From the NCBI GenBank assembly GCA_038874075.1, contig JAVZDD010000003.1:25488-89487 (forward strand): a stretch of 64,000 nt of DNA, given 5' to 3'. Below are positions 1 through 33,589 of this stretch, in pieces. The stretch is from Candidatus Nanoarchaeia archaeon. Its GTDB lineage: Archaea > Nanobdellota > Nanobdellia > Jingweiarchaeales > Jingweiarchaeaceae. Made by a program: the position numbers and the translations under genes. The notes beneath the pieces are model-generated. The model had not been told where the DNA came from, made no database searches, and saw only the letters and a list, made by a program, of their open reading frames with translations. How positions within the stretch are numbered: the first letter of the stretch is position 1; each line of letters begins with the position of its first letter.

Positions 1-3000
1 AGGTGTTGGACCGTAGTATGTTGTTTGATTCGCAAGTTGCCATTCTCCACCAGATTTCCTTATCCATAGATAAACAGTAACATTATCTCCATCAAAATTC
101 TTTACCTTTATTTCAAATGTGAATGTTGTCCCCCATTCACCAGAACCAGGAGTAATGCTCCACGAACCTTCAACAAATTCAGGCCTATGATTTATGTAAA
201 ATGCATTCTCATATGTTGAATTTTCATCTGCATAATAACTCTTACTACCATTCATCGTTAAGTTATGCCATCCCCAGTTCCAGTTCCAAGTATCACCACC
301 AAGTATTGTGGCTGTATAGTTACCATAACCTGTATCGGTTGCAAGATAAAATGCATTTTCACTTGGCACAGAGAAATAAACAGTAGCACCAGGAACTAGA
401 CCACAATTTGCATCGTCTGATAAATTACCTGAAAGAGGAATGTTATCGACACCCCTTTCAAATGCTGGATTGTTCTTTGGCCCAATTGGTTGATTTATCT
501 TAGGAGTGAATTCTGAAGTTATTGTAACATTGAAAATACTTGAGTTTGCATCTTTCCACTTCTGATCATTATACACTCCACCTTTCCACTTTTGCTTTCC
601 AACATTATAAACACATTTATTAACTCCAACTGGGAAGTATAGATAGAAGTGACCAGTAGAATTTGAATCACTACCTGGTATTCTTGGTCCCCATGAATTT
701 GGATCACTTGCATTCGTTGTTACCCAGAAACTTGTTTTTGCACCTGATGCACTTTGTCCCAAATCCAAATCAATTACTCTCAATATAAATGTCGTATTTT
801 CTGAGACCCTATTGAATGTTGTTTCATTTCCTGCGATGTATTCAATTGAAACATCATTTTTTTCTACCGTTATATTCAGTATCTTAGTATCGTTTCCCAA
901 ATCAACATCAGATTCATACACACTTTCGTTTACAAAGAACATAATTGACCAATTTCCTTGTTGTTGGTAATTGAATGTTGTAGTTCTCGTTGCAGTTCTA
1001 TTCGTACTACTGCTTCCTGAACTTGTACCGATTAGATGCCAGTCATCAGATACTGGATTGCCATTCGCATCTGTCAATTGTTTTTTATAGAAATAAACCA
1101 CGTCAGTATCCTCATCCGGATCGCTTACATTCACTGAAAGTATAAATGTCTCTCCCCACCCTCCAATCTGAGGAGTTACATTTGGGTAATATAGTTCTGG
1201 TTTTGTTTCTATCCAAAATGAATTGGATCCGTAGGTGGTATATGTAAGTGTGGTAATGTTTTCATTGTAATTTGTTTTGTTTGTTTTCATCGTTAGATTG
1301 TAAGCTTTTGGTGGCATTGAAGAGGTATTGAATGTACAATTGTAATGTCCGTCACCTTCACTTAAAACAGGTTCGCAAATGAAAAGCTCATTTGTTTTTA
1401 ATGATTTGGTTGTAAAGTTTACAGTTACTGGATCAATGATGACATTGCAGTCATCTGTAACATTTGCCCTTATTGTTACATTATCACCTCTTAAGAATTT
1501 TTCACCATCTGGTTGAATTACTGTATTAAACAAGCTCCCAATCACATTTACTGTGTAATTTTCAGTTGAATTTACTTCAACATAGCAAGCATCATTTGTT
1601 ACTCCACCTTTCCAATATTGCTTACCTACAGAATAACTACAATTCGGATCAAAATCAAGCGTAAGATAACCATTTGAATCCCCATTTATCACATAAGCAA
1701 AATTATAATTTTGTGAATCATTTGTGATCCAAATCGTTCCATTTGGATTTATCGCTGGTTGTGATCTGTTTAAGTCATAAATTCTTAATTTCAATTGTTG
1801 GCTAGCTCCATATCGATTTACGTTCGTGTTATTTCCAGCAATGTAGGTTACATTTACAATGTCTTTATGTAAAATTGGACCACTAGCGATCGTTGTGTTG
1901 ATTACATTTGTCGAATCATTTAATTCAAAGATGAAACTGTTTTCAGCCTGCAATAAGTAATCGTTGCATGTGAAGTCATTAACTGTAATCGAACAATTTC
2001 CTTTCCCATTTGTTACTGTGCTGCTTCCTTTATATATCCATTCACCCGTTGTGTTTACGTACAGCTTGCAAACAACAGTATCATTCTCAGGATCATCTAT
2101 TGTAACATTATATCTATACACATCACCAAATCCACCTTCACTTGGAGTAACAATTAAATTTGAATAATATGGATTGATATTCTCTAACCAAAAGCGATTC
2201 CAATAAATTGTGATATTATTATTATAGTAGTTCCTCGATGTTTCTATTCTAACACTATAATTTCCTTCTGGTTTATTTGTTGAATTCCAAGTACAATTGT
2301 ACCATCCATTTCCCTCGTTATTTATGTTTGTACATGAGTACTCATTACCAGTCTGATTATGTATTAATTTGATTGTAATAGATGAAACATCATTTATTAA
2401 GCCCTCATCGCTACAATCAGTTGATACATTGAATCTTATTGGAATTTGATCACTCACATTATAAACAAGTGAATCAGGTTTTTCCAAGTTATTCTTCAGC
2501 TGTCCATATAAGTAATAACTTTCCCAAGAAGTCATTTCTTTTGTTTCATAACAGTCTCCACCATTTATTGTTAATTTCCAATATTGCATTCCAGTACTAT
2601 AACTACAATTCGGATCAAAACCATAATAACTTATTCTACCATTCTCATCTGTTGTATTTGTATGATCAGAATCCCATACAGGAGTTGTGTTGTAGCTGAA
2701 ATTGAAATAACCATTTAATCCCTGAGGTACGGGTATCCCTTTATCCGTATCATTGATAAGAACAATAAATGTTCCGTAATTTATTCCCTCCCTATTTATG
2801 GTTATTCCAGAACCTTGTTCAACAATGAATGAAACATTGTCTTTTTGGAATGTAATATTGAAAATGCTTGATGTTTTAGTTAAATTATAGTTATCACTTG
2901 AATTGAATTTGAAATAAACAATCGGTCCGCTTTGTAAATCATTACATGTAAAAACAGGATAAAAGTTGAGTGTGTTCTCACTCAAACAATTCGTGCAATT

Positions 3001-6000
3001 TTTTGATTCCAAATATATCCATGGACCATTTTGGTTATATGCTTTCCATAGACTCACATTTACAACATCATCCGGATCGGAATCTTGAACTGATACATTC
3101 AATGTGAAATTGTATCCCCAACCCTCACTACTTGGATGAGCACCAGCACCGCTTAACTGTGATCTTGCTCTTAACTGGAACGCATTTATTTTCTCAACGA
3201 ATGTGCCATTATAGAAATTCTTTGAAACATTAAAGCTTACATTGTACCAACCTAATGGATCACCTGTTGTATCAAAAGTACATGTGTAATTTCCATTTCC
3301 TAAATCATTTGCATTGCAAGTATGATAGGAACTCCCATCTTGCATTACATTAAATTGTTTAATTGTTGCGCCACTTACACTTCCGCAATCATCGGAAACA
3401 TTTGCATTTACGATTAAAGATTCACCAACTGCAATTACTTCCCCATTGGGTTGGGTAATATTTGAATTTAGAACTGAGAGAATATTCACAAAATAAGCAG
3501 ATGAATTGTTTGCAAAGTAATAATCACTTTCAAATCCAATCTTCCAATATTGTAAATTGACCGCATAACTGCAACTTGGATTAAAGCTGAAGTTTAAGTA
3601 ATTTGAAACAGCACTTGTTGTACTGTCCAATATGTAATTGCTCTGATCAGTTGTAACATAGAGTTTTCCCGTAGGTCCTGATATACCCCTACCCGGCTCT
3701 ACAGCATCTATCACTTTAACAGAGAGTAATGTTACATTCGAGCCAATTCTTGAAACATTCGTGTTATTCCCAGCAATGTATTCAAAGTAAACATTTCTTT
3801 TTGTGATGTTGAAATAACCACCAAAACTTTCATTTGTTTGCCCGTATTTATCCGTAACATTGATTTTCCATTCATATTCTCCGATCTGTGATGAGCTGAA
3901 GCTCTCAGTAAATGTAACTCTTGTATTTATTGGATTTGTCACATTTTGAGAATCTTTTAATGTGAATGATGTATCAGAAATTTTCTTTACCCACAAACTC
4001 ACATTTACAACATCGTCCCTATCACTTACATTGCAATAAAAGTTTATGTTTACACCCCAAGGAACAGAAGATGGTGAAACATTTAGGCCGAATAAATTTG
4101 GAGGAACTTCGATAAACATCGCATTTGTGTATGTTGTTAAATTGCTATTGTAATTTTCAGTGTATGAGAACATCTTCACATCATACAAACCACCAGCAAG
4201 ATCTGTTGAATTCCAAGTACAATTGTAATAACCATCAGTATAATTATTTGCATAACATGCAAATGTTTCATAACCAATTCTTGAAACATTAAAGCTTACA
4301 TTACCATTACTTATTTTAATCCCACATTCATCCGTAACATTTGCTTCAAATGTTACATTTGAATATTGTTGATATACATTGTCCCCCCCAGGTTCTGTAT
4401 TTCCATTTGGTTCAATTAAGATATTATTTAACCATCCTTTTATTGTCAATGTGTAATTCTGAGTGCTATTCACATTCTTGTAACATGAGTTGTTTACTGT
4501 TCCAGCCTTCCAATATTGTTGACCCACAGAATAACTACAATTTGGTATGAAGCCATAATTTACATAACCATCAGAATTTGTAGTGTTTATACCACCATTA
4601 TCGAAATTTGATTGATCAAATGTTACCCAAAAGCTTACATTCACTCCGCTGAACACATAACTCTTATTATCAGTATCATTTATTCTAACACCAAGTAACG
4701 TGCTTTCACTTCTATTCACTTGTGAATTGTTTCCAAGTACATATTCAATGACCACATCATCCTTGTCTAATGTGAAGTCTATTCCAGCTCTGTCTGTTGT
4801 ATTATGCGCATCACTCGCATTAAACTTGAAATAAGCAGTTGGTATGTAGTCACATGTGAAACCTTTATAGTAGAATACTAATTCTTGCTCTGTCCCACAA
4901 TCATAACAAATCTGAGAACTTACGTACTGCCATGTTAAATTATCAGGAGATATCCATAAGCTTACATTTACATTTTCACCGTTTGCATCACTTACATTCA
5001 CTTTAAATGTGAAATTCTCACCCCATCCCCAATCTTGCTCCGGTAAAACGGTTTCATTTTTGAGAACAGGAGGTTGCCAAACTTGTACGATGTTAAATGC
5101 ATTATTTTTCGTGGAACTTCCATTATTGTAGAAATTTATATTACTTGCATTCATTTCAACATTATACCAACCTTGTACTGCATCAGTAGCATTCCAAGTA
5201 CAATTGTATGTTCCATTGCCTAGATCATTTATTTCATCACAGAAGTAATTTGTTCCTGGAAATGCAACACTTTTTATTGTGAAGTTCACATTTGCGCCAG
5301 CAAAGTAATGTAAGTTACATTCATCATACACGTCACCCGTTATGTTTATTGTCAAGTACTGCTCTCTCTGATATGTTTGACCATTTGGGAATGTGACGTT
5401 CGGCGTTAAGAAACCTTTTATTACCACATTGAAGGTATCTGAGTTCTTGTCTTTGTAACAAGAATCAGCAGAACTGTAAGCATACCAATTCCTATTTCCA
5501 GCTTCATAACTACAATTCGGAGCAAAATTATACTCTACATATCCACTTGAATTTGTCGTGTTCCAACCAGGAATGATATAAGTTGTACCGTTATGCACCT
5601 TAAACCATATTTTTGCTGCACCGTAGCTTGGATTGTATGCCGGAATGCCAGCATCCGTATCATTCACAAACAAGATAAATTTAGTTGGAGTACCACTTCT
5701 ATTCACTTGTGAATTGTTTCCAGCAATGTAGATAATATCAATGTCATCCTTTTCCAAAAGATGTGAACTTTCAGTTGTTTCAGCGTATGTATCTGGTTCT
5801 CCGGGCTCTGACGCATTGAACTTGTAATATTTAAGTGCAGCATCTTGGTAATCACTACAACTGTAATTTCTTGTAAAGTTTACGAGCGTATTGCTTGGAT
5901 TTTGGATATACTTACATTCAGTGATCTGATAATTCGAAGTTGCAGTCATTTTTTCTAAAAGACAAACATTCACATTTGCATAATGTGTAACAGTAACAGA

Positions 6001-8060
6001 GAAATTGAACGTCTCCCCCCATCCACCTGGATTTGGATTCACTTGTGCGGCACTTAAAACAACTGGGGTTCTGAGGAAAAATGCATTTGTTTTTAAATCA
6101 GTACCATTATTGTAATAATCATTCCAAGAATTCATTGTTACATTAAACCATCCACCACTAATCGCCTCAGATGAGTTCCAAGTACAATTATAATAACCAT
6201 TACCATCATAAGTTACATTCCCGACACCTTTACAGTAATAGACATTACTTCCAGATTGTATTTTGAATTCTATCCTGCTTTCTAAACCAGTCACAGGCTG
6301 ATTGCAATCGTCCAAAACTCTTCCTCTAAACGTAATATTTTCTCCCTTTGTGTAATTTGCTGATCCATCCGGTAGCACAATTTGATTTAAAAGATTACCA
6401 TAGATCTCAATGTAAAAGTTCTCTGTTTGATTGTCTTTATAACATGAGGCTCCGGAAACTGTTACATTCCAATATTTTTTACCAGGTGTATATGAGCAAT
6501 TTGGATTGAATTCACGGTAGTAATGTGTTTCATTCTTATACTCTTCATTTTCATTTTCCAACCAATACCCATTTGCTTTCACCCGGAAATGTACATTTGA
6601 AAGATCAATAACATTTGTATAATTGTTTGTTACTAAGTCCCATATTTGGACCGTAAGATTTACCTTATTATTTTCGCTTGAATCGCTCCTGTTCACTTGG
6701 CTATTGTTTCCACTTACATAATTAATCGAAATTGCTGATTTTGTTACATTGAAAGCAGTCTCAGATGTGGTTGCACTGAAACCAGTTACGCTACTTGCAT
6801 TGAATTTAAAGTACCAATTATCTATGTTGTCACAACTGAAGTTCTTTTGATAAGAATAATCGAAATTGTTACAATTTACACAGGAAGTTGAGTTCTCTAG
6901 GAACCAATTATAAGTTGTGTTCTTTAACCATAGCATGATTGTTACATTTTGATTGTCTTCGGATGTTACAATTAGAGAGAAATTGAATGGTTTTATTTCC
7001 CAGCTTCCTTCTGGATGGGGCTGGACTTGTGGATTAGTTAGACTAATATTACTCGCTAGGAAAAATGCATTTAAAATGTTCTTTGTTCCGTTCCAATATT
7101 TATTCCCATTTTCACCCTTACCAAATGCAATCATTGTGACATTGTACCAACCATATGGGAAACTCGAATTTGTTTCAATTTGACATGAGAAACCAGTTGT
7201 GGTTATACAAGTTCCATAAACATTTCCATTTTGCATCATTCTGAACTCTAAACCAAATTTGCTTGGATCAGTTTGTGTAACAGAACAATCATCGATCACG
7301 CTTCCAGAAAATGCAATTGTTTGTCCTCTAGTGAAGTTTTGATTGAACGATTGAATCGTTGAATTGCTTAAATCACCCATAAGCCAAAATAGAAGTGCAT
7401 TGTATGGTGATGGTTCGGTTAAATTGTTATTGTAATAACTTGAATCAATTGCTCCACCTTTCCAATAATTCTGCCCAAGATAAAAGTTATTTGCAGTTGG
7501 GCACCAATCACTTAATGTCATTGTTTGTGTCATGTAACCGCTCTCATTCACAACTGGTGATTGGGGATAATATGTCTTATAAGTTGTATTGCTTCCGAAT
7601 TGAGAAATTTGGATGAAACCTTTACCAAATTCTAGAAGTGTCGCAGGTGTTTGATTGTCACGATCATATATTTCTAATGTGAAATTGTAAGGTGTACTCC
7701 TGTTTATGTTTTCATTCCAGCTCGGAGTGATATTTATTACATCGATATCATCTTTCTCAACTTTAAAATTGTATCCACCAATTTCAGTACTACCATCAAC
7801 ATTGGTTGCATTGAATTTAAAGTACCAATTATCACTTATGTTAAGATGTGAGTAATCATAACTGAAATTGGCTTGCGTCCAGCTAGCACAATTTACACAT
7901 TCCCAACTCCCAATTAAATTGTAATCCTCTACTCCTTTTTTATGCCATGCATAAACAGTAACATTCCTACCGAATCTATCTTTGACCATCACAGAGAAAT
8001 TGAATTGTTCCCCCCATCCACCAGTTGTTAGAGATGGATTTCCATTTACGTAGAGCGTTG
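1..8060 (-). repeat. Tandem array of divergent coding modules of about 970 bp (about 320 aa) inside the giant ORF: 8 complete copies plus 1 partial copy that runs off the window
   Basis: Hand-translated motifs recur with a 950-1015 bp period. GGWGE-type motifs (TPQIGGWGETF, NPNPGGWGETF, TTGGWGEQFNF, SGEWGTTF, SEGGFGDVY) lie near 150, 1160, 2140, 3120, 4070, 5035, 6030, 7010 and 8015. PNCSY..G.QYWK motifs (DFDPNCSYSVGKQYWKGG, GFDPNCSYSTGMQYWK, FNPSCSYAVNLQYWK, FIPNCSYSVGQQYWKAG, FAPNCSYEAGNRNWY, FNPNCSYTPGKKYWN, NKCVYNVGKQKWKGG) lie near 615, 1635, 2605, 3570, 4535, 5505, 6495 and 7480. GNG.YNCTWN and KDD.I.Y.AGNNSQVNR also occur once per module. Confidence 0.85.
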
Positions 8061-11000
8061 CATTTTCCAAAAGTGGAGCATAACTATATTCTTTCACCTT
8101 CATGAACAAATGCTGGGTCTCATTAAACAAGAGTCCATATAACCAAGTGTAATAAATTTTTGTTATATTCGATGTTGTATTTGCACCATAAGTACCCGTT
8201 GCATAGGAATGTAAGTACAATGGGTGTTGCAATTGCCTGAATCTCCAACTTTGATCTTCGGTGAGGTTATATATTGTTTCGTATTCAAAGTAAATGCTTC
8301 CAAAAAAGTTTCTCTCAAAGAAAAGTGATTCTACATTATCATCAGTTTCAGTTTTTATTGAAAGTTCAGAAATTGTGAGATTTTCACCTGTCGCATTGAA
8401 TGTGAAGTTTATACCACCATTAATGATTCTCTGGTAATTTTTATTGGGTGATTGCAATGTGTGGTAGATTGTTTTATCACATGAGGCACCTGAGCAAACA
8501 TAGTTAGGATAGTCGGTATAATTTATTGTTCCCCTTGTATCTTTGATTGCGTATGGATTTAATACAATTCCACCTTCTGAACTGCAGTTTATTGTGAAAT
8601 TCAGATAAGTTGTATTCCTTACATTGAGGTTACTCAAATTCCATTCAATTGTTCTTGTGCTCGAATTCCAGCTTCCATTCCAAACTTGGGTTACATCACA
8701 AATTCCAGGAATTGGTAAATAAATCGTCCAATTGTTCGCTTGTGTGTCTCCAATGTTCCTCACGATTAAACTAGCATTATAAGTATAATTTGGTTGCAAA
8801 CTTCTCGGCTCATTCCAGGGAAAGTCAGGAAGCTGCCATAAAGCAAGATCGAATTCTATATGACTCTCATTTGTGTAATTTGCCGTTTGCAAATGATGGA
8901 ACTCATGCGGCTCATCCCAATCCACATTCTCATAGTTTAAATTCCACTTCATATTTCCTGTAGCTCCAATTGTCGTCGGAGCTTTTACTTGATAAGTAGC
9001 TACTCCATACTCATTCACATCAAAACCAGCAATTTGCCATATCACAAGATTGTTTTCCAAATCAACTGAGGAATTGAAATTCAATCCACCCAGCAAATTT
9101 GGATTTGCTGGTGTCCATCCAGGTTTTATCTCTTCTTTAAGTATCACATTTCCATTTATCGGTGCACATCCTTTGTTATGCAGTACTAGTGCACTTTCGA
9201 AAACACCATTCGGATAAACCCTTGTTGGTGTTTCCCTTATTACTTCGATCACAGAATGGTTTGCGTTACTCACATTCAATTGGTAAAGTTTAGTAATGTT
9301 GAACTCTAAAAACTCCTGCAAATAGGAAATCGAGACATTTATTGTTGCATTTTCTGCATTGTTAGGAGATGTGATGTTAAATTCAAACTTAATGTCCTCT
9401 GGTGTGAAAATGACATACTCTAAATAACCAGGCGATACATCCCAACCAGGAGGCACGCTCACACTTACATTTATTATTGTGTTTTCATCAGCATGGATCC
9501 CTTCTAATTCAACATTTAATGTTTCAGAAGTTCCGGGACACATTCTTGGATTGAGTGTTAGGTAAACTTGTTCAGGTATATTATAAAATCTCTCAAATCT
9601 GGTTGTCGAATTTCCATCGCTGAAATTCAAGGTTGTATTGACAACCAACATCTCGTGTGGCATATTCAGCGTGTTTACGAGAAATGTATAATTTATTAAG
9701 CTGTTTGGGGTCAAATTTAGATAAGTCGAATTTTCATAATAACTGACATTCCCATCCCAATTTGTTATGTTGATTGAAAGTAATGTGTCATTGTACCATT
9801 CATTGAATGGGTTTTTGATCGAAATGACCATATTAACCGTGTCATCACTTCTTAAATAAGTGACATCAGTTACTACGACTCTTTCTATCATGTAAATCGA
9901 TGCATTCACATAATCAATCATCAATGGCTCCGGACCATAATTTCGAAGTTGTAAGCCACAAGAACCATTGTTAAAAAGGCCAACATCCGGACCAAGTGGT
10001 CCAAGGGGCTTCATTGTGATATTTTCAGTCACAATCTGTGTGCTTGCAACCGTGAACCATTCTTTCTTTCCGTAGCCAATGATAACAGCATTGGCAGTAC
10101 CATTCAATGCTTCCCAGAAGATTTTTATGTCTGCTACTCTTGGCTCAATTGCACCACAATCCCATTCAAGCAATATACTTTCTCCAGGATCAACTTTTGC
10201 TTCAGCACTTTCATTATCAAAATCGTTACCAATCACCCCATCCAAAGAACAAACTTTGCTTGTAACATCTATCCCCTTTAATGTTAATCTGGCATTTGGA
10301 CACCCAAGATACTTATAACCCCAGACAATTGGATTCACATATTCTGTGTCATCATTACCTAATGAGTTATTTACATATATTGAAATACTAAAATTACCAT
10401 AAGTTGTTGCATTGATTGTCCATTTTACTTTCTTTAGTTCTCCAACCCCAATTGAACCAATATATTTAGTTCTATTATCTACCTGCCATTCTGAAGGGGC
10501 GTTCAATGTCACATAAACATCATTTGAAGTACTAACGAGGCTTGAAATCGTTGCATTTATTGTGAAGTTATTGTATTGGAATACTTCAATCGGAGAAAGC
10601 GCTTCTACGATTGTTGGTTGTGGTTCACAACCAGTTACGTCGATCGTTATTGTGAAATTCTCACTTATGTTACTATAGTAAGCACTGTCTTCACTAATCC
10701 ATGCAAACCATTTCTGGGCTCCTGGATTAAAATTACAATTTGGTGTGAATGTCACTGTTGCTATTCCATTTGTATCAGTTGTTGTTGAATTGACAAGATA
10801 ATTGTATATTCCATCATAACTCACATTGAAATAAACAGTCGTAGCGGGTGTCAAATTGTAAGTGTCAGCAATCAAATCCTTTACTCTTACTTTAAAAGTA
10901 GCTGCTTGTGTTAGATTCGCATAGCTATTGTTTCCAGAAACATATTCGATCGAAGTGTTATCTTTTTTGATTACAAAACTATCATAACCTGATGTTGATT

Positions 11001-14000
11001 CAGTAGCTAAACTGAACATGTAAAACCAAGTGCCAACATCTTGAGATGTAAAATTCTTGTACCAATACTTTGTTTGATTTATACAATCAGGATAACTACA
11101 ATTCAAAGGTGTTTGATTCACACAATCTGAGCACTCAGTGAAACCAGTCGGAGAACCCTTTGCTAATAATAATTTTACTTCATATGAATCTGTATCTCCA
11201 CTGCTTGATATAATAGAAAAATTCCAATTTTTATAACCCCAGCCTTGTGAGCTTGGAATCACACTTGGATTTTCCAATTTATAAATAGGGAAAAGATAGA
11301 ATAATCCAGGAGAAATTAATCTATAACTCACATTTGAATAGTAATAATTTGCTTCTGCGTACATCGTGGTATTGTACCATCCTTTTGGTGTGGTCACATT
11401 TGTATTCCAATCACAAGTATAAGCATTTGCACCTACTTGGCTTACTGGTGAGCACTCATAACCTGCTGTTGAATGATTCGCATAGAACTTTACATTTGTG
11501 CTTAATGGATCTCCGCAATCATCCGTTGTAGCACCTAAGAAAGGAATTTTTTGCTCCTGCGTATAATTCGTTGACCCATCTGGCTTTTGGAAATCCAAAT
11601 TTATATCTCCAGTTACAAGAATGCTTAAATTGTAGTAATTTTCCGTTGAATTGTCCTCATAGCATGCTTGTCCAGAAATTACAGCTTTCCATTTTTGATT
11701 TCCCACTTGGTATTTCGGAGAACATTTCGCCTGGAAATAGTAATTGGCATATGCGGATGAATTTGTTGTATTGCTCGTACCAACATCGTATATAGATCCA
11801 TCCAATGTTACATAGAAGGTAATCGGTAGATTTGTGATCAAAGTTCCATTTGCGTCTCTCACTCTTAATGCAAGTAATGTGGTCGTCTTTCCTCTTCTTG
11901 TTTCAGTGTTATTACCAATTACATCCTCAAAAATCGTCTTGTCTTTTGTTATCGTGAAAGTTTTCGTCGTTGAGTTCGTTGTTCCTGCATCATTCGTCGC
12001 ATTGAATTTCGCAAATACTGTTGAACCAATATCCTCACAATCTGGATCGAATTCGAATGTGAAATTTGTCCATTGTCCTGTCCCAGAGCCAGGTGCTTGA
12101 TATATCTGACAGTTTCCTACTTGTTTCCATGGTTCACTACCAGTCTTACTGAACCAGGCGCAAACGCTTACATTATTCTCGGAATTACTTACTCTTACAG
12201 TAATATTAAAAGTGAAATTGAATCCCCAAGCACCAGATGAACTTCCTGTTTCATTCGATACAATTGTTGCATTCTCCATTTCAATTGAGGCAGGAGGAGC
12301 TAGCACTTGTACATCTTTACAATTAAAAACAATCGTTGAGTTTTCAGTTGCATTTGCTTTTATGCAAAATGTATAAGTCCCTGGTGTTGTCCCAGATGTG
12401 TTAACAATGTAAGTGTAATCAGTATGTGCATTTCTTGATTGTAACGGACCTATTGTTCCAAGGTAAGTAAGATTACTAATTTCATTTGTGGAATTCCTAA
12501 CTTCAAATTTGCCTGTATAGTTTATCTCAACAATTACATTACTTGCATTGCCAGGACCAGCATTATAAATTGTTGATGAAATGTTGAAAACATCACCAGC
12601 ATATATCGTACTTGGTATTGTCGTTGGCTTTGAAACGTTTAATGAGGCACCACACGAAGCTGAGAAAATGTATGGTTTATTATAGTATATCAATGTTCCA
12701 TTTAAAGGTATTGCTTGGAATCTGAAAGTACCATTTGTTTGATATGTTACATTTAATGTGTAATTGTAATATTTTGAATAAGGCTTTCCATACGGAGATT
12801 GGAAATTTATATTATTGTCCCAGGTTATTTTTACTGAATCGTTTATCGTTGCAGGACTGCCTTCGCTTGACCATGTGTTTTGGAATATCAAATCTTGTGG
12901 ATGCGTTACAGTTAAATTTTCCTTATTTTCAGTAAAGTTGAAATTGCTTCCTGGCTGGTTTCCTTTGTTGAAAACTTGGAATGAAACATTGAAAGTACCG
13001 CACCCGAACGAGCTTGGAAAACCTATGAGCCACTGGGAAGAAGATGCATCATAATAATTTCTAATTGTTTTAATCCAAGGACCAAGAAGCGTTATTGTTC
13101 TCTTGTTTTTTGTCCACCACTCTCCCTTATTCCTTGCTGCTTCACCTAAGAGATTTTGATACCATGGTTTTCCTCCAGGTGCAAATTGAAGAATGCTTCC
13201 TATGGTTGTTTGTATGTTAGAAATCGTCACCAGACCACCTATCGTTGTTGATGTGGTGATGTAACCATTCGTAAATGCACCAAGTCTAGACCATCTAATC
13301 CACCAACCCTCATACATAGAACCTACTGGATAACCTGGATCAGGTGTATATCCACCACTAAAACTATCTCTACTTATATTGAAACCAGGAGGTATCCAAA
13401 GATCAATCACATACACATAACCAGCAGTTGCAGATCCTGTTCTTATCGCATATTGTATTGTTGCCGAGGAGCTCTCTCCAATTTCTGTAATGTTTAGGAA
13501 TGGATCAGGAGAACCGGAATGTCCCGTAGCAGCATTAGCAGAGATAAATGTGTCCGTTTTTGTGATCGTTTGTGAGCTCTGAGTAACGGGATCTACCCAA
13601 ACTACTTCTGTAACAAATTGACCATCTGCACTTGCCTCTTCTGGACCAACCCATTGGATTGTTGCATTGAAGCATGAAGATGTTGGTATTTCTCTATTTA
13701 ACCATTGAACTAGACTTGCAGTTATTGTATTCGCGCTTGGTCCTTCTATAATTGTTGGTGCTGTTGATGGTGATTGGCCAGAAGGATATACAGTAATATT
13801 AACTGTTAAGTTATAATCACCAAAATTACATACACTTAGTCTTTGGTAATTCCTACTACCACTATCACCTGTTCCTCTATTTGGATAAGTGGTAAATATG
13901 ATAAGTGGAGCAAGGTTGCCTTCTTCGGATTGATAAATATCAAATGTTTTTGTATAAGTAAGAGTTGGTCGATTAGTTTGATTTATTTCAACTTTTAAAG

Positions 14001-16404
14001 TATAAGTTTTTTGAGGAATATCCTCTGGAACTTCAAATCTCCAGGTTAAAATACTCTCATTCCAATATGGGATTGTACTCGTTGCTCCAATGGAAAATGG
14101 TTTAGTAGTGTTGTCCCAGAAAAACCAATCTAACTGTGTGTCACCATCCCACAAACTAACTGTAACATTTCCAGAAACACTCGCAGTGGTATTGTAATTC
14201 GCTAGAGGAACCGCGATGAAAGCAATATGTCCTCTTATTATTTTTTGGTCCTCACCAGTAGGAGAATAAATTTTTATATCTCTGACCAGGTTTGCATTTG
14301 TACAGTTTATTACTCTGACCGTAAGGATATTCGTATTTTCTCTGAATGCACCAGGATAAACAGATGAGGTTAACTTGAGCTTATATGTACCTGTTGCTGC
14401 GTCATTTGTGATGTTTAAAAGTCTTGTCTCGAAATAACACGCATCAGCTACACCATTTGTACAAGTTAAAGCAGCGTTACTTAATTCATTAGATACTGAA
14501 TGATCATTTGTATCCCCGCCCCAGTATGTCCAGCCAGCGTACGGTAAATTATTATATGTTGATGCACCTCCTGGAAGAAGTTGCAGTCTGAGAATCTGTG
14601 CTGACGATGCTGAGTCATAGGCAGCATCAACGACCTGTACGCTTACATTATAGTATTCTCCTCTACAAACAGTTAATGTATCCGTTATATTACTTGTGTC
14701 TCTCCATCTCCAAGTCCATTTTACATAATAATAGAAAATTGTATCAACTGCGATACTCCATGGTCTCACTTCTTCAAAGCTCTTAGCTTCTGAATCTTGT
14801 ATATAATCAATGTGTAATGGTCCAACTAAATAGAGCATCGGTGAGATTTGCGGCGTTTTATAAGTATATTCCAGAATTACATTATCAGATGGATTTTCAT
14901 ATTCCCATAAAATGAATTTTCCGCTTTCATTCTGTATTACGATTCCATTGGTTTGTGTTATTATGAAGTCATCCGGTATCGGTTCAATTATTTTAACACT
15001 TGAAGCGTTGAGATATGGTTTAATGTATATTTTCATTTTTGTTGGTGGCTCTGGATATATCACTGTCTCAGATTCCCGAAGTATATCGAACTCAACACTT
15101 TCACGAACCTCAAAGATTGTTTCATAATCAGCATCGACGTCTTCCCAAATAGCTCTTGCATAAATTTTGTAAATACCGATTTCTTCTGGATAATAAGTCA
15201 AGTTATAAGTTCCATCACCATTACTAATTATCCCATCATTTGTTGAGAATTCTTCTATTTTACCAGAAGGTGTTATTATTTTTAATGAAATGGAAGCATC
15301 AGGTACTCGATGACCATATTTATTTAGTACGCCAACTATTATCTTAGTTTCTTCACCTACTAAATAAATCGATTTTGGTGTGTTTATATTTACCAAGCCA
15401 ACGGAAAACTCACTCTCACTTAAAATTTTATCAAGAAGCATTAGTCTCAATTTGTATAAACCTGGTTTGAAATTTCTACTTGTATCTATCAAGAATTCTT
15501 TTCTTAATTCATTAAATCGAATCTGTGTTTCATTTCCTTCTGGATCAATTAGAATTACTCTTAATTTTCCGAGCCATTTTGTTATGTTTTCATTTGTTAA
15601 TATTTCAAAATTTATCTTTTCACCAATTTTAAAGGATTTTTTTGGCAGTTTAATTTCTATACGTTGTTCACCCACTTGTACCTGTTCCTGTTCTAAGATG
15701 CTCTGATTTTTGCTTATTTCTGTTGTTGTATCTTGCCCAGTTGCTAACCCATTCTGCGTTTCACTTAAAGAAATAAAATTTATATGTTCAATCGTAGAGA
15801 AGTTTTCGGTACTTGCAACAAATGTGTATTCACCACTTTCATTCCAATTGGCAGTTATTGTGAAATTGAAAGTATTTTCTGATAGATCCAGTTCTCTTTC
15901 AAACACACTCAAATTACTCGGAGAAATGATCTTTATTTTTATGATTGTTCCATTCGTTTCATTGACAATACCAAAAATAGTGAGATTTTCACCATAACTT
16001 AGATTAAGTTTATCTAAGATCACGATTTCCTGCCCACTTGATGGATTCAAGGCTTCACTAATATTAAGGATGCTGAATCCTGTAATACTTCCATTAAGAA
16101 CGATTAAAGATTCACTGAGCACAATTGCGCCAAAAATTAAAATCAATAAAAATTTTATTTGAGATCTCACCTGGGATTTTGCACTGAGCTTATTACTTTT
16201 GTAATTCATCTGTTCTTTCAAAAACCAAAGATGCCTGCCACTCGTGCTGATTCTATCAATCTTATCTTCTATCTGCATCTCTAGAAGTATTTCATGTACT
16301 CTATGCCAAGATATATTTAATTCCTCAGCAATTTCACCAGTACTTCTAGGGCTACTTCTTTTGAGAAGTTCCAGTATTTTTTCCTTGATTTCTTTATGAT
16401 TCAT
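1..16404 (-). CDS. Giant cell-surface protein, N-terminal 5468 codons (C-terminus lies beyond position 1): cytoplasmic wHTH-like domain, single TM helix, huge repetitive Ig-like ectodomain
   Basis: ATG at 16404-16402 with an in-frame TAG two codons upstream. Minus-strand codons fall on plus-strand triplets starting at positions 1, 4, 7 and so on. I found no tta/cta/tca in that register in any stretch checked by hand (1-660, 1601-1660, 2101-2160, 4721-4780, 5701-5760, 7981-8040, 12181-12360, 15121-15180, 16021-16404). The ORF track lists no complete minus-strand ORF between 714 and 16534, as expected if this frame never reaches a stop in the window. N-terminus: MNHKEIKEKILELLKRSSPRSTGEIAEELNISWHRVHEILLEMQIEDKIDRISTSGRHLWFLKEQMNYKSNKLSAKSQVRSQIKFLLILIFGAIVLSESLIVLNGSITGFSILNISEALNPSSGQEIV. 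Confidence 0.9.
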   Translation of the reverse strand, partial: MNHKEIKEKILELLKRSSPRSTGEIAEELNISWHRVHEILLEMQIEDKIDRISTSGRHLWFLKEQMNYKSNKLSAKSQVRSQIKFLLILIFGAIVLSESLIVLNGSITGFSILNISEALNPSSGQEIVILDKLNLSYGENLTIFGIVNETNGTIIKIKIISPSNLSVFERELDLSENTFNFTITANWNESGEYTFVASTENFSTIEHINFISLSETQNGLATGQDTTTEISKNQSILEQEQVQVGEQRIEIKLPKKSFKIGEKINFEILTNENITKWLGKLRVILIDPEGNETQIRFNELRKEFLIDTSRNFKPGLYKLRLMLLDKILSESEFSVGLVNINTPKSIYLVGEETKIIVGVLNKYGHRVPDASISLKIITPSGKIEEFSTNDGIISNGDGTYNLTYYPEEIGIYKIYARAIWEDVDADYETIFEVRESVEFDILRESETVIYPEPPTKMKIYIKPYLNASSVKIIEPIPDDFIITQTNGIVIQNESGKFILWEYENPSDNVILEYTYKTPQISPMLYLVGPLHIDYIQDSEAKSFEEVRPWSIAVDTIFYYYVKWTWRWRDTSNITDTLTVCRGEYYNVSVQVVDAAYDSASSAQILRLQLLPGGASTYNNLPYAGWTYWGGDTNDHSVSNELSNAALTCTNGVADACYFETRLLNITNDAATGTYKLKLTSSVYPGAFRENTNILTVRVINCTNANLVRDIKIYSPTGEDQKIIRGHIAFIAVPLANYNTTASVSGNVTVSLWDGDTQLDWFFWDNTTKPFSIGATSTIPYWNESILTWRFEVPEDIPQKTYTLKVEINQTNRPTLTYTKTFDIYQSEEGNLAPLIIFTTYPNRGTGDSGSRNYQRLSVCNFGDYNLTVNITVYPSGQSPSTAPTIIEGPSANTITASLVQWLNREIPTSSCFNATIQWVGPEEASADGQFVTEVVWVDPVTQSSQTITKTDTFISANAATGHSGSPDPFLNITEIGESSSATIQYAIRTGSATAGYVYVIDLWIPPGFNISRDSFSGGYTPDPGYPVGSMYEGWWIRWSRLGAFTNGYITTSTTIGGLVTISNIQTTIGSILQFAPGGKPWYQNLLGEAARNKGEWWTKNKRTITLLGPWIKTIRNYYDASSSQWLIGFPSSFGCGTFNVSFQVFNKGNQPGSNFNFTENKENLTVTHPQDLIFQNTWSSEGSPATINDSVKITWDNNINFQSPYGKPYSKYYNYTLNVTYQTNGTFRFQAIPLNGTLIYYNKPYIFSASCGASLNVSKPTTIPSTIYAGDVFNISSTIYNAGPGNASNVIVEINYTGKFEVRNSTNEISNLTYLGTIGPLQSRNAHTDYTYIVNTSGTTPGTYTFCIKANATENSTIVFNCKDVQVLAPPASIEMENATIVSNETGSSSGAWGFNFTFNITVRVSNSENNVSVCAWFSKTGSEPWKQVGNCQIYQAPGSGTGQWTNFTFEFDPDCEDIGSTVFAKFNATNDAGTTNSTTKTFTITKDKTIFEDVIGNNTETRRGKTTTLLALRVRDANGTLITNLPITFYVTLDGSIYDVGTSNTTNSSAYANYYFQAKCSPKYQVGNQKWKAVISGQACYEDNSTENYYNLSILVTGDINLDFQKPDGSTNYTQEQKIPFLGATTDDCGDPLSTNVKFYANHSTAGYECSPVSQVGANAYTCDWNTNVTTPKGWYNTTMYAEANYYYSNVSYRLISPGLFYLFPIYKLENPSVIPSSQGWGYKNWNFSIISSSGDTDSYEVKLLLAKGSPTGFTECSDCVNQTPLNCSYPDCINQTKYWYKNFTSQDVGTWFYMFSLATESTSGYDSFVIKKDNTSIEYVSGNNSYANLTQAATFKVRVKDLIADTYNLTPATTVYFNVSYDGIYNYLVNSTTTDTNGIATVTFTPNCNFNPGAQKWFAWISEDSAYYSNISENFTITIDVTGCEPQPTIVEALSPIEVFQYNNFTINATISSLVSTSNDVYVTLNAPSEWQVDNRTKYIGSIGVGELKKVKWTINATTYGNFSISIYVNNSLGNDDTEYVNPIVWGYKYLGCPNARLTLKGIDVTSKVCSLDGVIGNDFDNESAEAKVDPGESILLEWDCGAIEPRVADIKIFWEALNGTANAVIIGYGKKEWFTVASTQIVTENITMKPLGPLGPDVGLFNNGSCGLQLRNYGPEPLMIDYVNASIYMIERVVVTDVTYLRSDDTVNMVISIKNPFNEWYNDTLLSINITNWDGNVSYYENSTYLNLTPNSLINYTFLVNTLNMPHEMLVVNTTLNFSDGNSTTRFERFYNIPEQVYLTLNPRMCPGTSETLNVELEGIHADENTIINVSVSVPPGWDVSPGYLEYVIFTPEDIKFEFNITSPNNAENATINVSISYLQEFLEFNITKLYQLNVSNANHSVIEVIRETPTRVYPNGVFESALVLHNKGCAPINGNVILKEEIKPGWTPANPNLLGGLNFNSSVDLENNLVIWQIAGFDVNEYGVATYQVKAPTTIGATGNMKWNLNYENVDWDEPHEFHHLQTANYTNESHIEFDLALWQLPDFPWNEPRSLQPNYTYNASLIVRNIGDTQANNWTIYLPIPGICDVTQVWNGSWNSSTRTIEWNLSNLNVRNTTYLNFTINCSSEGGIVLNPYAIKDTRGTINYTDYPNYVCSGASCDKTIYHTLQSPNKNYQRIINGGINFTFNATGENLTISELSIKTETDDNVESLFFERNFFGSIYFEYETIYNLTEDQSWRFRQLQHPLYLHSYATGTYGANTTSNITKIYYTWLYGLLFNETQHLFMKVKEYSYAPLLENATLYVNGNPSLTTGGWGEQFNFSVMVKDRFGRNVTVYAWHKKGVEDYNLIGSWECVNCASWTQANFSYDYSHLNISDNWYFKFNATNVDGSTEIGGYNFKVEKDDIDVINITPSWNENINRSTPYNFTLEIYDRDNQTPATLLEFGKGFIQISQFGSNTTYKTYYPQSPVVNESGYMTQTMTLSDWCPTANNFYLGQNYWKGGAIDSSYYNNNLTEPSPYNALLFWLMGDLSNSTIQSFNQNFTRGQTIAFSGSVIDDCSVTQTDPSKFGLEFRMMQNGNVYGTCITTTGFSCQIETNSSFPYGWYNVTMIAFGKGENGNKYWNGTKNILNAFFLASNISLTNPQVQPHPEGSWEIKPFNFSLIVTSEDNQNVTIMLWLKNTTYNWFLENSTSCVNCNNFDYSYQKNFSCDNIDNWYFKFNASSVTGFSATTSETAFNVTKSAISINYVSGNNSQVNRSDSSENNKVNLTVQIWDLVTNNYTNVIDLSNVHFRVKANGYWLENENEEYKNETHYYREFNPNCSYTPGKKYWNVTVSGASCYKDNQTENFYIEIYGNLLNQIVLPDGSANYTKGENITFRGRVLDDCNQPVTGLESRIEFKIQSGSNVYYCKGVGNVTYDGNGYYNCTWNSSEAISGGWFNVTMNSWNDYYNNGTDLKTNAFFLRTPVVLSAAQVNPNPGGWGETFNFSVTVTHYANVNVCLLEKMTATSNYQITECKYIQNPSNTLVNFTRNYSCSDYQDAALKYYKFNASEPGEPDTYAETTESSHLLEKDDIDIIYIAGNNSQVNRSGTPTKFILFVNDTDAGIPAYNPSYGAAKIWFKVHNGTTYIIPGWNTTNSSGYVEYNFAPNCSYEAGNRNWYAYSSADSCYKDKNSDTFNVVIKGFLTPNVTFPNGQTYQREQYLTINITGDVYDECNLHYFAGANVNFTIKSVAFPGTNYFCDEINDLGNGTYNCTWNATDAVQGWYNVEMNASNINFYNNGSSTKNNAFNIVQVWQPPVLKNETVLPEQDWGWGENFTFKVNVSDANGENVNVSLWISPDNLTWQYVSSQICYDCGTEQELVFYYKGFTCDYIPTAYFKFNASDAHNTTDRAGIDFTLDKDDVVIEYVLGNNSQVNRSESTLLGVRINDTDNKSYVFSGVNVSFWVTFDQSNFDNGGINTTNSDGYVNYGFIPNCSYSVGQQYWKAGTVNNSCYKNVNSTQNYTLTIKGWLNNILIEPNGNTEPGGDNVYQQYSNVTFEANVTDECGIKISNGNVSFNVSRIGYETFACYANNYTDGYYNCTWNSTDLAGGLYDVKMFSYTENYNSNLTTYTNAMFIEVPPNLFGLNVSPSSVPWGVNINFYCNVSDRDDVVNVSLWVKKISDTSFTLKDSQNVTNPINTRVTFTESFSSSQIGEYEWKINVTDKYGQTNESFGGYFNITKRNVYFEYIAGNNTNVSRIGSNVTLLSVKVIDAVEPGRGISGPTGKLYVTTDQSNYILDSTTSAVSNYLNFSFNPSCSYAVNLQYWKIGFESDYYFANNSSAYFVNILSVLNSNITQPNGEVIAVGESLIVNANVSDDCGSVSGATIKQFNVMQDGSSYHTCNANDLGNGNYTCTFDTTGDPLGWYNVSFNVSKNFYNGTFVEKINAFQLRARSQLSGAGAHPSSEGWGYNFTLNVSVQDSDPDDVVNVSLWKAYNQNGPWIYLESKNCTNCLSENTLNFYPVFTCNDLQSGPIVYFKFNSSDNYNLTKTSSIFNITFQKDNVSFIVEQGSGITINREGINYGTFIVLINDTDKGIPVPQGLNGYFNFSYNTTPVWDSDHTNTTDENGRISYYGFDPNCSYSTGMQYWKLTINGGDCYETKEMTSWESYYLYGQLKNNLEKPDSLVYNVSDQIPIRFNVSTDCSDEGLINDVSSITIKLIHNQTGNEYSCTNINNEGNGWYNCTWNSTNKPEGNYSVRIETSRNYYNNNITIYWNRFWLENINPYYSNLIVTPSEGGFGDVYRYNVTIDDPENDTVVCKLYVNTTGEWIYKGSSTVTNGKGNCSITVNDFTCNDYLLQAENSFIFELNDSTNVINTTIASGPILHKDIVNVTYIAGNNTNVNRYGASQQLKLRIYDLNRSQPAINPNGTIWITNDSQNYNFAYVINGDSNGYLTLDFDPNCSYSVGKQYWKGGVTNDACYVEVNSTENYTVNVIGSLFNTVIQPDGEKFLRGDNVTIRANVTDDCNVIIDPVTVNFTTKSLKTNELFICEPVLSEGDGHYNCTFNTSSMPPKAYNLTMKTNKTNYNENITTLTYTTYGSNSFWIETKPELYYPNVTPQIGGWGETFILSVNVSDPDEDTDVVYFYKKQLTDANGNPVSDDWHLIGTSSGSSSTNRTATRTTTFNYQQQGNWSIMFFVNESVYESDVDLGNDTKILNITVEKNDVSIEYIAGNETTFNRVSENTTFILRVIDLDLGQSASGAKTSFWVTTNASDPNSWGPRIPGSDSNSTGHFYLYFPVGVNKCVYNVGKQKWKGGVYNDQKWKDANSSIFNVTITSEFTPKINQPIGPKNNPAFERGVDNIPLSGNLSDDANCGLVPGATVYFSVPSENAFYLATDTGYGNYTATILGGDTWNWNWGWHNLTMNGSKSYYADENSTYENAFYINHRPEFVEGSWSITPGSGEWGTTFTFEIKVKNFDGDNVTVYLWIRKSGGEWQLANQTTYYGPTP
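10560..12260 (-). repeat. Second block of the same module family (about 1.75 copies) in the giant ORF, separated from the main array by about 2.5 kb of non-repeat coding sequence
   Basis: Hand translation gives SSGAWGFNFTFNITVRVSN (about 12230), YFQAKCSPKYQVGNQKWKA (about 11700), SSQGWGYKNWN (about 11250) and VTFTPNCNFNPGAQKWFAW (about 10720). Spacing is again about 980 bp. Confidence 0.7.
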
Positions 16405-16488
16405 TAACTAGACCTTTTGCAGACTATCTGCTATAGGTCATTTTTCATTTTCCGTCCATCGTACGTAAAGTAATCTAAGAATTGGATT

Positions 16489-16496
16489 ATTTATAA
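16489..16496 (-). promoter_or_regulatory. TATA-box-like element (TTATAAAT on the minus strand) upstream of the giant ORF
   Basis: Plus strand atttataa. It lies about 88 nt upstream of the ATG at 16404 and 9 nt downstream (in the direction of transcription) of the 32-nt palindrome. No TSS data. Confidence 0.3.
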
Positions 16497-16504
16497 GCTT
16501 TTAC

Positions 16505-16536
16505 AAGTATTTGTACAAATATTTGTACAAATACTT
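16505..16536. promoter_or_regulatory. Perfect 32-nt palindrome (two tandem TTTGTACAAA cores); operator or terminator hairpin
   Basis: aagtatttgtacaaatatttgtacaaatactt. All 16 base pairs (16505/16536 through 16520/16521) verified as complementary. It overlaps the stop codon of the 727-aa gene and sits about 100 nt upstream of the giant ORF start. Confidence 0.6.
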
Positions 16537-18718: not shown

Positions 18719-18724
18719 CTTTGT

Positions 18725-20032: not shown

Positions 20033-20794
20033 TTATTCTAGTCTGAGTAAGAATCTAGCAATTTTATCAATTATGCTTCTCTCTTCCTCTTCTATGCCAC
20101 AAAGCTTTTTTGCTAGTTCCTTGAATTTTTTCGAAGAACTTGCATTCGGATTCAGTAAAACAACAGGTATCTTGAAAAATAAACTTCTTGCGACTTCATC
20201 ATCATGTGGTATTACCGACAATATTGGAATATCACACATTTCTTCGATTTCTTCAATTTTCATTCTGTATTTTTTCTTATACATGTTCACAACAAGCCCA
20301 GTCAATTTTACATTGTATTCATTCAACACATCTTTAACTCTCATCACATCAACAACACTCATGAAATTTGGATTTGCTACTAAAAGAACTTCGCTTGAGG
20401 CGAGTAATGTTCCCATCGTTTCTCTTCCGAATCCTGGTGCAGAATCAAGAAGTACGAAGTCTGCCATACCTAATACATCTTTTATCTTTTTCCTTAGGTT
20501 CACGATATCAACACCAATCATGCTGTGCGAGGAAAGAGAAGCAGGAATGATTTTCACACCACTTTTGTGTTCGTATATTGCATCATAGATTTCATATTTT
20601 CCCTTTAACACGTCATTTATCGTAACAGAATAATCATGAATTCCGAAATAGAGCGCCAAATGCGAAGTAGATATATTGCAATCAACAATTATCACTTCCT
20701 TACCCAATTGCGCAAGACATACGGCCAGATTTGCAGTTACTGTCGTCTTACCAACTCCACCCTTTCCAGACATAATTCCAATTACCCTGGTCAT
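20033..20794 (-). CDS. MinD/ParA-family P-loop ATPase (deviant Walker A)
   Basis: MTRVIGIMSGKGGVGKTTVTANLA... carries the KGGxGK[ST] deviant Walker A motif. Length is 253 aa. The start ATG overlaps the TGA of the upstream 469-aa gene (tcat at 20791-20794). Confidence 0.9.
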   Translation of the reverse strand: MTRVIGIMSGKGGVGKTTVTANLAVCLAQLGKEVIIVDCNISTSHLALYFGIHDYSVTINDVLKGKYEIYDAIYEHKSGVKIIPASLSSHSMIGVDIVNLRKKIKDVLGMADFVLLDSAPGFGRETMGTLLASSEVLLVANPNFMSVVDVMRVKDVLNEYNVKLTGLVVNMYKKKYRMKIEEIEEMCDIPILSVIPHDDEVARSLFFKIPVVLLNPNASSSKKFKELAKKLCGIEEEERSIIDKIARFLLRLE

Positions 20795-22866: not shown

Positions 22867-22904
22867 ATATTAAATATCAAAATTACCTAAGTTAAGAAAG
22901 CGAG

Positions 22905-29865: not shown

Positions 29866-30128
29866 GGGAGCTATACAGCATTCCCTTCTTTAGCATTCGA
29901 CTTAGCGTTTTAAACTTGCACCGACTGGGTCGGCCGTTTCAACTTACTTTGAGATTCTTCAGCTTCGCCAGCATCACAAACATTTCACAAAGCAGTCTCG
30001 TTTCTGATCCGTTGCCATCCTTTTACGGATGAGCATTGCTGCTCCAGTCTTTTTTTGGGTGGACGGACTTCCTCAGCACTTTTGGTTTTATCCAAAAGCA
30101 CCGACAGCTAAACACCCCACCACCCTTC
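29832..30128 (-). ncRNA. rnpB: RNase P RNA (archaeal type), about 297 nt
   Basis: GC-rich island. The minus-strand RNA contains GCUGAGGAAGUCCGUCC (CR-I-like, compare GAGGAAAGUCCG) and ACAGAAGACGGGCUACAG (CR-V-like, compare ACAGAA..CGGCUUA). These can form P4 (AGUCCG with CGGGCU). The termini pair as P1 (AAGGGUGGUGGGG with CCCUGCCACCCCUU). Confidence 0.75.
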
Positions 30129-30165
30129 TCGTCTAATTAAATCTTTTACTTTTTAAGATTTTTGA

Positions 30166-30604: not shown

Positions 30605-33589
<2,985 letters not shown>

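Follow-up and report, generated by a model that had tools for sequence, protein, structure and literature searches.

The first 65 residues of a giant predicted surface protein of Candidatus Nanoarchaeia archaeon form, by family profiles and structure prediction, a domain of the winged helix-turn-helix (wHTH) type resembling the fimbrial regulators PapI and FaeA, and a single predicted transmembrane (TM) helix connects this domain to an ectodomain of more than 5,300 residues. The gene lies on the minus strand of a 64,000-nucleotide stretch of contig JAVZDD010000003.1 (assembly GCA_038874075.1), which was analysed as a whole and is referred to as the window. Sequence comparison places the domain in a narrow family of Aenigmatarchaeota-like DPANN archaea, whose members are, in the loci compared, always the first-encoded item at giant surface-protein loci. 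Our preferred reading, to which we give a probability of about 0.55, is that the wHTH is a dedicated, probably autoregulatory, DNA-binding leader module of the giant-gene locus, which would be membrane-tethered in this genome. The sequence analysis shows its architecture, fold, conservation and cis-element; DNA binding, autoregulation and a benefit of tethering are what we infer.

Giant surface proteins are the main host-attachment candidates in DPANN archaea, and we know of nothing on how they are regulated. The novel part of the present locus is a partner of 5,000-8,000 residues, with regulator and presumed target in one polypeptide, and a known class of transmembrane transcription regulators would thereby be extended to an external part of this size. 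The locus offers a testable regulatory module, consisting of a 65-residue domain, a 38-bp candidate operator and natural fused and split versions; the fused and split versions at homologous loci provide built-in controls for the effect of membrane tethering. Related loci and proteins are cited below by our own L and P numbers.

N-terminal domain and layout of the giant protein

The ATG at 16404-16402 of the minus strand is the earliest possible start past an in-frame TAG. The reading frame from this codon is free of stops for 5,468 codons, to window position 1, and continues past the window edge; the protein was analysed as residues 1-5468, with its C-terminus outside the window and none recovered from related loci. 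An earlier sequence-only reading had described a wHTH domain, a basic stretch, a single TM helix and a giant ectodomain in one uninterrupted frame, and this layout was recovered in each of its parts: the peptide it quoted is present exactly, and no stop separates the wHTH from the remainder (Table 1).

In Pfam searches with residues 1-65, FaeA (PF04703) reached 24.2 bits (cut-off 20.7) in an alignment covering positions 2-60 of the 62-position model, HTH_24 scored 22.8 bits (cut-off 21.9) and z-alpha scored 21.5 (cut-off 21). With residues 1-152, FaeA remained above its cut-off (21.5 bits against 20.7), and the z-alpha score of the longer construct (18.6) was below its own. About 20 further HTH models matched residues 1-65 more weakly, in agreement with a wHTH, and the NCBIfam search gave HTH matches below threshold only. 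An AlphaFold2 model built on a 17-sequence family alignment reached a predicted local distance difference test (pLDDT) score of 94-98 over residues 1-60 and contains helix 1 (residues 3-16), helix 2 (22-29), the recognition helix 3 (33-45) and a beta-hairpin wing (49-62, with strands 49-54 and 57-62). Foldseek comparison with the PDB returned winged-helix proteins alone, namely Zalpha, the MarR-type ZitR and AdcR, the ArsR-type CzrA and SmtB, DsrD and TFE-alpha. The Zalpha superpositions were the best, with TM-scores of 0.82-0.89 (target-length normalised) and root-mean-square deviations of 1.0-1.8 Å over about 60 residues. The family profile found a sole significant solved relative in the PDB, 2HTJ, the PapI-like 'P fimbrial regulatory protein KS71A', which aligned end to end at an E value of 2e-4.

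By these profiles and this model, residues 1-65 are a PapI/FaeA-like winged-helix domain. The MarR/ArsR/TrmB type that had been assigned to the domain was not supported: HTH_5 (ArsR; 20.4 against a cut-off of 22) and TrmB (12.1 against 25.6) stayed below threshold, no MarR model of Pfam was listed for the domain at E up to 10, and the likeness to MarR and ArsR proteins is, as judged from the predicted structure, at the level of the fold only. The OmpR/PhoB-type domain Trans_reg_C was absent among the Pfam matches at E up to 10. Thirteen residues are invariant in the family (S18, P19, T22, A26, S32, W33, H34, E38, L40, L41, E42, R51 and W60), and the window protein retains all 13. They include the S-W-H..E pattern of the recognition helix, which is invariant throughout the family, and the Trp of the wing (W60).

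The TM segment FLLILIFGAIVLSESLIVL has a Kyte-Doolittle value of 2.69 and is the sole segment among the 5,468 residues with a hydropathy window above 1.6; the charge is +5 before it and -1 after it. In the AlphaFold2 model, residues 63-105, TM included, form one unbroken helix. The ectodomain contains Pfam immunoglobulin (Ig)-like domains (Filamin, Big_1, NPCBM_assoc and Big_7) and 292 N-X-S/T sequons (5.4 per 100 residues), against 107 +/- 9 in shuffles, an excess of about 20 standard deviations. It includes 87 cysteines and 11% Asn, and the sequons and composition suggest a surface protein that is very heavily N-glycosylated. Homology of the ectodomain extends to giant open reading frames (ORFs) in L013, L014, L017 and L020, and to P0020 and P0001. 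Since the charges follow the positive-inside pattern and the Ig domains and sequon excess come after the TM, a topology with the N-terminus inside and a glycosylated ectodomain outside is predicted, as the sequence-only reading had it. As a prediction, this is the ToxR/CadC-type topology, in which the DNA-binding domain is N-terminal and cytoplasmic and a single TM leads to an external C-terminal domain. With a DNA-binding domain and one or more TM regions predicted together, the protein also falls among the transmembrane transcription regulators as previously defined (PMC10269533).

On the sequences compared, the fusion is not an assembly artefact. In GCA_025920765.1 (L023), which was assembled independently and is 99.94% identical (2 mismatches), the in-frame fusion is likewise uninterrupted, in a gene called from the same Met1. 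The fusion, for which homologous giants had been named as the place to look, also recurs in more distant proteins. In P0020, the wHTH is 55% identical to that of the window protein and the ectodomain 39% identical over 454 residues; no contig carrying P0020 was found, and its promoter is outside the comparison. In L013, a 180-kb contig of a metagenome-assembled genome, the frame that begins with wHTH and TM contains no stop in 3,392 codons, and its product shares 36% identity with the window protein over 1,600 residues. The direct wHTH-TM-ectodomain layout is also found in P0006 and P0014.

Translation from Met1 is favoured by the sequence features over a start at Met66, which the sequence-only reading had kept as an alternative. 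A Shine-Dalgarno-like AGGT precedes the ATG and matches the anti-Shine-Dalgarno of the 16S rRNA, whose 3' end reads GGAUCACCUCCU; such a match is present at about half of the gene starts in the window. No match was found in the 22 nt upstream of Met66 in the same scan of window gene starts, and no TATA-like box was seen before Met66 on reading the sequence by eye. P0020, P0015 and P0021 have no Met between wHTH and TM, so a downstream ATG start is unavailable to them.

Related loci and the promoter element

An exhaustive phmmer search with residues 1-110 gave 54 relatives. It was needed to recover the family, since a word-indexed search with residues 1-600 returned P0001 alone, which lacks the wHTH. 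A profile search of a 5.8-billion-protein set added few members, and scans of genome and metagenome contigs, limited by their reliance on one peptide pattern, gave 4 and 3 loci only. Within the 64-kb window, the wHTH family has no further copy. Four unrelated-looking proteins among the phmmer matches (P0002, P0005, P0010 and P0019) contain 4-7 tandem copies of a similar wHTH with the consensus ..ILELI..N..IT..E.A..M.LS..TI.R.I..LK.EGRL.R.G....GYW.I; in P0005 (1,019 aa), the copies follow a helicase-like N-terminal region.

Three arrangements of wHTH and giant gene were observed. In the first, a stand-alone wHTH gene of 67 aa (L020 and L021) is separated by 27 nt from the following gene, which was called at 8,727 aa and whose product shares 52% identity with the window protein over 645 aa. 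In the second, the wHTH is fused via a TM to a small ectodomain (259-325 aa), and the giant gene begins at or overlaps the stop (L014, L017 and L018/L019; Table 1). The third is the direct fusion to the giant protein (the window, L013, P0020, P0006 and P0014). In a further group of loci, the fourth (L002-L005, L011 and L012), a stand-alone wHTH gene lies beside the gene of a signal-anchored protein of 167-193 aa; the C-terminal domain of this protein recurs as the ectodomain of P0009 and P0018, which are fused members. Stand-alone wHTH genes span 67-94 aa in all.

In L002 (265-997) and L012 (2881-3703), the wHTH gene overlaps the start of the next gene, a signal-anchored one, in another frame, by 11 nt and 17 nt, respectively. 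A single small indel could thus fuse or split both genes, and such frame overlap may be the cause of recurrent fusion and fission. A neighbour-joining tree of the 56-residue core, which is of low resolution, places the window wHTH with stand-alone members and apart from the other giant-fusion clade. This placement suggests that the fusion arose more than once and that the window fusion is separate, perhaps recent. The repeated fusion and fission of regulator and target amount to a Rosetta-stone link between both.

The promoter of the giant gene contains a repeat element (Table 1). A palindrome at 16505-16536 had been pointed out from the letters of the window; it is real, perfect over 32 nt, and part of a conserved promoter element. 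The three units of this element occupy 16523-16530, 16511-16518 and 16499-16506, which correspond to -126, -114 and -102 from the ATG, and the array overlaps the stop codon of the upstream gene. The TATA-box-like TTATAAATA has the same position relative to the repeats as in related loci, and we infer a transcription start about 55 nt upstream of the ATG. Exact TTTGTACAAA occurs twice in 64 kb, both times in this array, and all 4 matches of the phased pattern in the window are in it as well, against 0.23 expected.

Equivalent arrays lie upstream of the wHTH genes of L002, L009, L013, L014, L017, L018 and L020, with five to six units flanking the TATA box in L014 and an inverted pair TTGTTCAA-N4-TTGAACAA in L020. 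A single copy of the exact pair TTGNNCAA-N4-TTGNNCAA is present in the 64-kb window, and L014, L020 and L021 have one each (L021 shares its wHTH gene and the sequence upstream of it with L020). The 21 loci contain no other copy, and every copy lies no more than about 140 nt upstream of the wHTH start. When up to 2 mismatches were allowed, pairs numbered 12 in 1.76 kb of wHTH upstream regions versus 12 in 181 kb elsewhere, an enrichment of about 100-fold. TTGTA/TACAA clustering over the whole locus is densest at the wHTH promoter in the window and in L002, L009 and L014.

The palindrome was also considered as a terminator of the upstream gene. This was rejected, as no T-run follows it and the same element is present in L020, where the upstream gene is divergent. 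The terminator scan was empty, and sigma-70 promoter and intrinsic terminator patterns are uninformative for an archaeon. Among the operator cores, TGTACA, TGCACA and TGTATA (window 16499-16530; arrays in L013, L014 and L018) alternate pyrimidine and purine; TGTTCA and TGCTCA do not.

Function of the domain and alternative explanations

A dedicated DNA-binding autoregulator is the simplest reading, since a regulator-type domain is encoded first, the array travels with it, and invariant residues of the recognition helix are paralleled by a conserved operator core. Under this proposal, the giant protein would be translated from Met1, and residues 1-65 would remain cytoplasmic, 10-25 residues from the membrane and held by one signal-anchor helix, with the glycosylated Ig-repeat body of more than 5,300 residues outside the cell. 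The domain would bind the 12-bp-phased TTGnnCAA array upstream of the transcription factor B recognition element (BRE) and TATA box in its own promoter, and binding would lead to autoregulation of the locus. In the fused form, each product molecule would have one regulator domain, made first and membrane-tethered, so that the dose and location of the regulator would be tied to the product. Tethering more plausibly ties the dose, timing and place of the regulator to its product than serves sensing by the ectodomain.

Several observations weigh against this proposal. The homologous giant gene P0001/L001 has neither the wHTH nor the repeat element; no array was found in L012, a single two-mismatch pair only in L011, and loose TTGTA/TACAA clustering only in L006. 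The motif pattern was refined on some of the loci that were later counted, and L009, L013, L017 and L018 are related, so the likeness of their promoters could partly reflect shared ancestry. The repeats could also be the site of a different factor. The domain itself is near neutral (net -1 here, -2 to +5 over the family), carries two invariant glutamates on the recognition helix and is joined to the membrane by a tether of only 10-25 residues. The linkers of ToxR and CadC are much longer, and a short linker means that the DNA would need to lie against the membrane.

PapI and FaeA provide the closest comparison. They are likewise minimal wHTH proteins of about 60-80 aa and give the best sequence-family match, with the W-F-L-K wing included in the 2HTJ alignment, and both they and the window family come first in loci that encode adhesive structures of the surface, which are enterobacterial fimbrial operons in the case of PapI/FaeA. 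The window family differs in being archaeal, with its own invariant signature SP..T...A.....SWH...E.LLE....R....W, and in being often TM-fused to the surface protein itself. Lrp is the partner of PapI, which acts at GATC sites.

Membrane-tethered regulators have been described in archaea, contrary to the sequence-only reading, which knew of no such example. ArnR and ArnR1 of Sulfolobus acidocaldarius are archaeal, have an N-terminal HTH, are membrane-anchored and control genes for surface structures (archaellum and pili) (PMC6396743). ArnR differs in that it lacks a large ectodomain, contains a HAMP-like and sensor region in the cytoplasm and has two TM helices at its C-terminus; no sequence relationship was detected. 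More widely, 1,384 archaeal transmembrane transcription regulators have been counted in 367 of 404 species, and 56% of all members are single-pass (PMC10269533). EarA, the euryarchaeal archaellum regulator, is a dedicated surface-operon regulator that binds TACATA or A(C/G)(C/G)TACA(T/C), in up to three adjacent copies, just upstream of the BRE (PMC10665913). By analogy, the position of the repeats upstream of the BRE resembles that of archaeal activators such as EarA; units in L014 lie also downstream of the TATA box. EarA differs in being soluble and in its motif details, which are unrelated.

Zalpha domains resemble the window domain in the best structural superpositions, the marginal Pfam z-alpha score and several alternating operator cores, whereas other operator cores do not alternate. 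Z-DNA binding was considered on account of these superpositions. In an alignment of our own, the Z-DNA contacts N173 and Y177 of ADAR1 presumably correspond to the helix-3 positions H/Q37 and L41 here and would not be matched, while the wing Trp (W60) is invariant.

The best-surviving alternative, which we regard as unlikely, is the one-component signalling in the style of ToxR and CadC that the sequence-only reading put forward, in which the giant ectodomain would sense surface or host contact, or clustering, and alter DNA binding by the tethered wHTH. The predicted topology is identical to that of ToxR/CadC, a palindromic phased operator-like array would suit contact-driven oligomerisation, and transmembrane regulators are common in archaea (PMC10269533). 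ToxR/CadC/TcpP-type proteins can, moreover, bind DNA from the membrane (PMC10269533, PMC6320335). However, some homologous giant genes are preceded by a stand-alone wHTH gene that has no ectodomain at all, and elsewhere the wHTH is joined to small ectodomains of unrelated kinds, so no specific sensor domain co-evolves with it. As free forms serve homologous giant genes, the ectodomain is in our view probably not needed as a sensor. The OmpR/PhoB-type wHTH (Trans_reg_C) of the ToxR/CadC-type proteins was not detected in the window protein, and the window wHTH groups with stand-alone members. Their sensor is dedicated and small, whereas the external part here is variable or giant and adhesin-like, and dispensable in split forms.

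Equally unlikely in our view is that the fused wHTH is a built-in reporter of a very long gene that feeds back in cis, or is released or clustered on host contact in a Notch-like manner. As a reporter, the wHTH would be translated minutes before the gene of 16-26 kb is finished and tethered beside its own promoter; its feedback on initiation in cis would count the product one for one. In the contact version, release or clustering upon engagement of adhesin and host would link surface contact to transcription in a DPANN symbiont.

The wHTH might instead be a cytoplasmic protein-interaction handle, for example for a MinD/ParA-type ATPase, that would position or cluster the adhesin without binding DNA, the array being that of another regulator. 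Winged helices often mediate protein contacts, and the near-neutral charge, the invariant acidic residues of helix 3 and the very short tether leave room for a non-DNA role. A MinD/ParA gene is conserved beside the locus in at least 5 genomes. The window copy is 42% identical to that of L009, which lies directly upstream of P0006, and the MinD gene directly precedes the wHTH gene in L009 and L013, so that a functional link to the wHTH/giant locus is possible on the basis of gene order. Such a handle is nevertheless improbable, as the closest family consists of DNA-binding co-regulators of adhesin operons, the operator-like array accompanies the wHTH and is missing where the homologue has none, and stand-alone soluble forms exist without an attached membrane protein.

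We are also doubtful that the wHTH is released by cleavage in or near the membrane, through regulated proteolysis or in a signal-peptide-like manner, as a soluble factor made one for one with the exported protein. Fused and split forms seem evolutionarily interchangeable, and many fused members carry a conserved, prepilin-like [KR]G 5-9 residues before the hydrophobic core. The window protein, in contrast, has no Gly in residues 63-84, and its charged residues reach the TM; no peptidase was identified, and we know of no leader of the size of the wHTH for class III-type signals. A class III (prepilin-like) signal peptide was rejected for the window protein, which lacks the [KR]-[GA] motif and has K, R or Q up to the TM.

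Far less probable than any of these is that translation of the giant protein begins for the most part at Met66, to give a normal signal-anchored protein, with the wHTH codons left over from an upstream gene that was fused recently: Met66, the basic stretch and the hydrophobic helix resemble a signal anchor and the N-termini of unfused homologues, and the tree placement of the window wHTH among stand-alone members would fit, but the 13 invariant residues are intact, neither of two independent assemblies has a stop between the parts, Met1 has the conserved promoter element upstream of it, and the translation signals and Met-less homologues described above point to the upstream start.

Feature coordinates and the rest of the window

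The features of the giant gene, its promoter and the corresponding items of related loci are listed in Table 1.

Table 1. Coordinates and properties of features at the giant-gene locus and at related loci
Feature	Sequence	Position	Strand	Remarks
wHTH domain, aa 1-65	window	16210..16404	-	start codon 16402-16404; Pfam, AlphaFold2, Foldseek, family alignment, 2HTJ profile match
Juxtamembrane basic linker, aa 66-84, MNYKSNKLSAKSQVRSQIK	window	16153..16209	-	net charge +5; includes Met66
Single TM helix, aa 85-103, FLLILIFGAIVLSESLIVL	window	16096..16152	-	predicted signal anchor, N-terminus cytoplasmic
Ectodomain, aa 104-5468	window	1..16095	-	extends past the window; Ig-like repeats, sequons, homology to giant ORFs
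Junction peptide of the fused protein, HLWFLKEQMNYK	window			
Shine-Dalgarno-like AGGT	window	16412..16415	-	7 nt upstream of ATG 16404
TATA-box-like TTATAAATA	window	16488..16496	-	-92 to -84 from the ATG; read from the sequence
Candidate operator, three TTGTAYA / TTGnnCAA units in a 12-nt register	window	16499..16536 (38 bp)	-	abuts the BRE/TATA region
MinD/ParA-type ATPase gene	window	20033..20794	-	Pfam; syntenic with the wHTH/giant locus
MinD/ParA copy	L009	605-1360		
MinD/ParA copy	L013	9081-9851		
MinD/ParA copy	L017	6409-7209		
MinD/ParA copy	L018 (also L019)	5471-6169		
Giant gene at a small fusion	L014			at least 2,129 aa; 57-60% identical to window aa 246-1174
Giant gene at a small fusion	L017			at least 2,921 aa; 37% identical over 1,889 aa
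Giant gene at a small fusion	L018/L019			at least 804 aa; no BLAST match to the window protein at E 1e-8

In L009, L017 and L018, a basic protein of 79-80 aa (MGLFGPYVY...YYFSKEP) precedes the MinD gene; no homologue of this protein was found in the window. Between the MinD and giant genes of the window (16535-19972, minus strand) lie genes for two secreted proteins that are present at this position in this genome only, one of 415 aa with a laminin-G/concanavalin-like (LamG) domain and one of 727 aa that matches nothing in Pfam and has a classical signal peptide. A second operon, at 22315-28559 (plus strand), encodes proteins that are secreted or anchored and lack a clear Pfam family, and is divergent from the string of genes for a 469-aa NPCBM_assoc protein, MinD, the LamG protein, the 727-aa protein and the giant protein. 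It comprises alternating paralogue pairs (183/217 aa and 239/240 aa) followed by proteins of 657 aa and 538 aa, the latter with a weak match to the WxLIP host-binding domain. An ORF of 1,097 aa at 40397-43690 (minus strand) has a weak MG2 (macroglobulin-like) match and is probably a further surface protein.

The window also encodes MCM, topoisomerase VI and primase, and the best named relatives of its TopoVI-A are from Candidatus Aenigmatarchaeota, at 62-67% identity, which makes the organism one of DPANN type. The rRNA genes are archaeal and unlinked (29837-39218 region, minus strand), with the large-subunit gene at 30612-33582 and the small-subunit gene at 37702-39218; a class I aminoacyl-tRNA synthetase gene (33830-36172), tRNA-Ala (36613-36686) and an ORF of 284 aa lie between them. 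An archaeal RNase P RNA (29837-30123) is found beside a TrmB-family regulator gene (29005-29865). The tRNA-Leu (aag) at 52531-52629 (minus strand) is 99 nt long and may have an intron or an unusually long variable arm.

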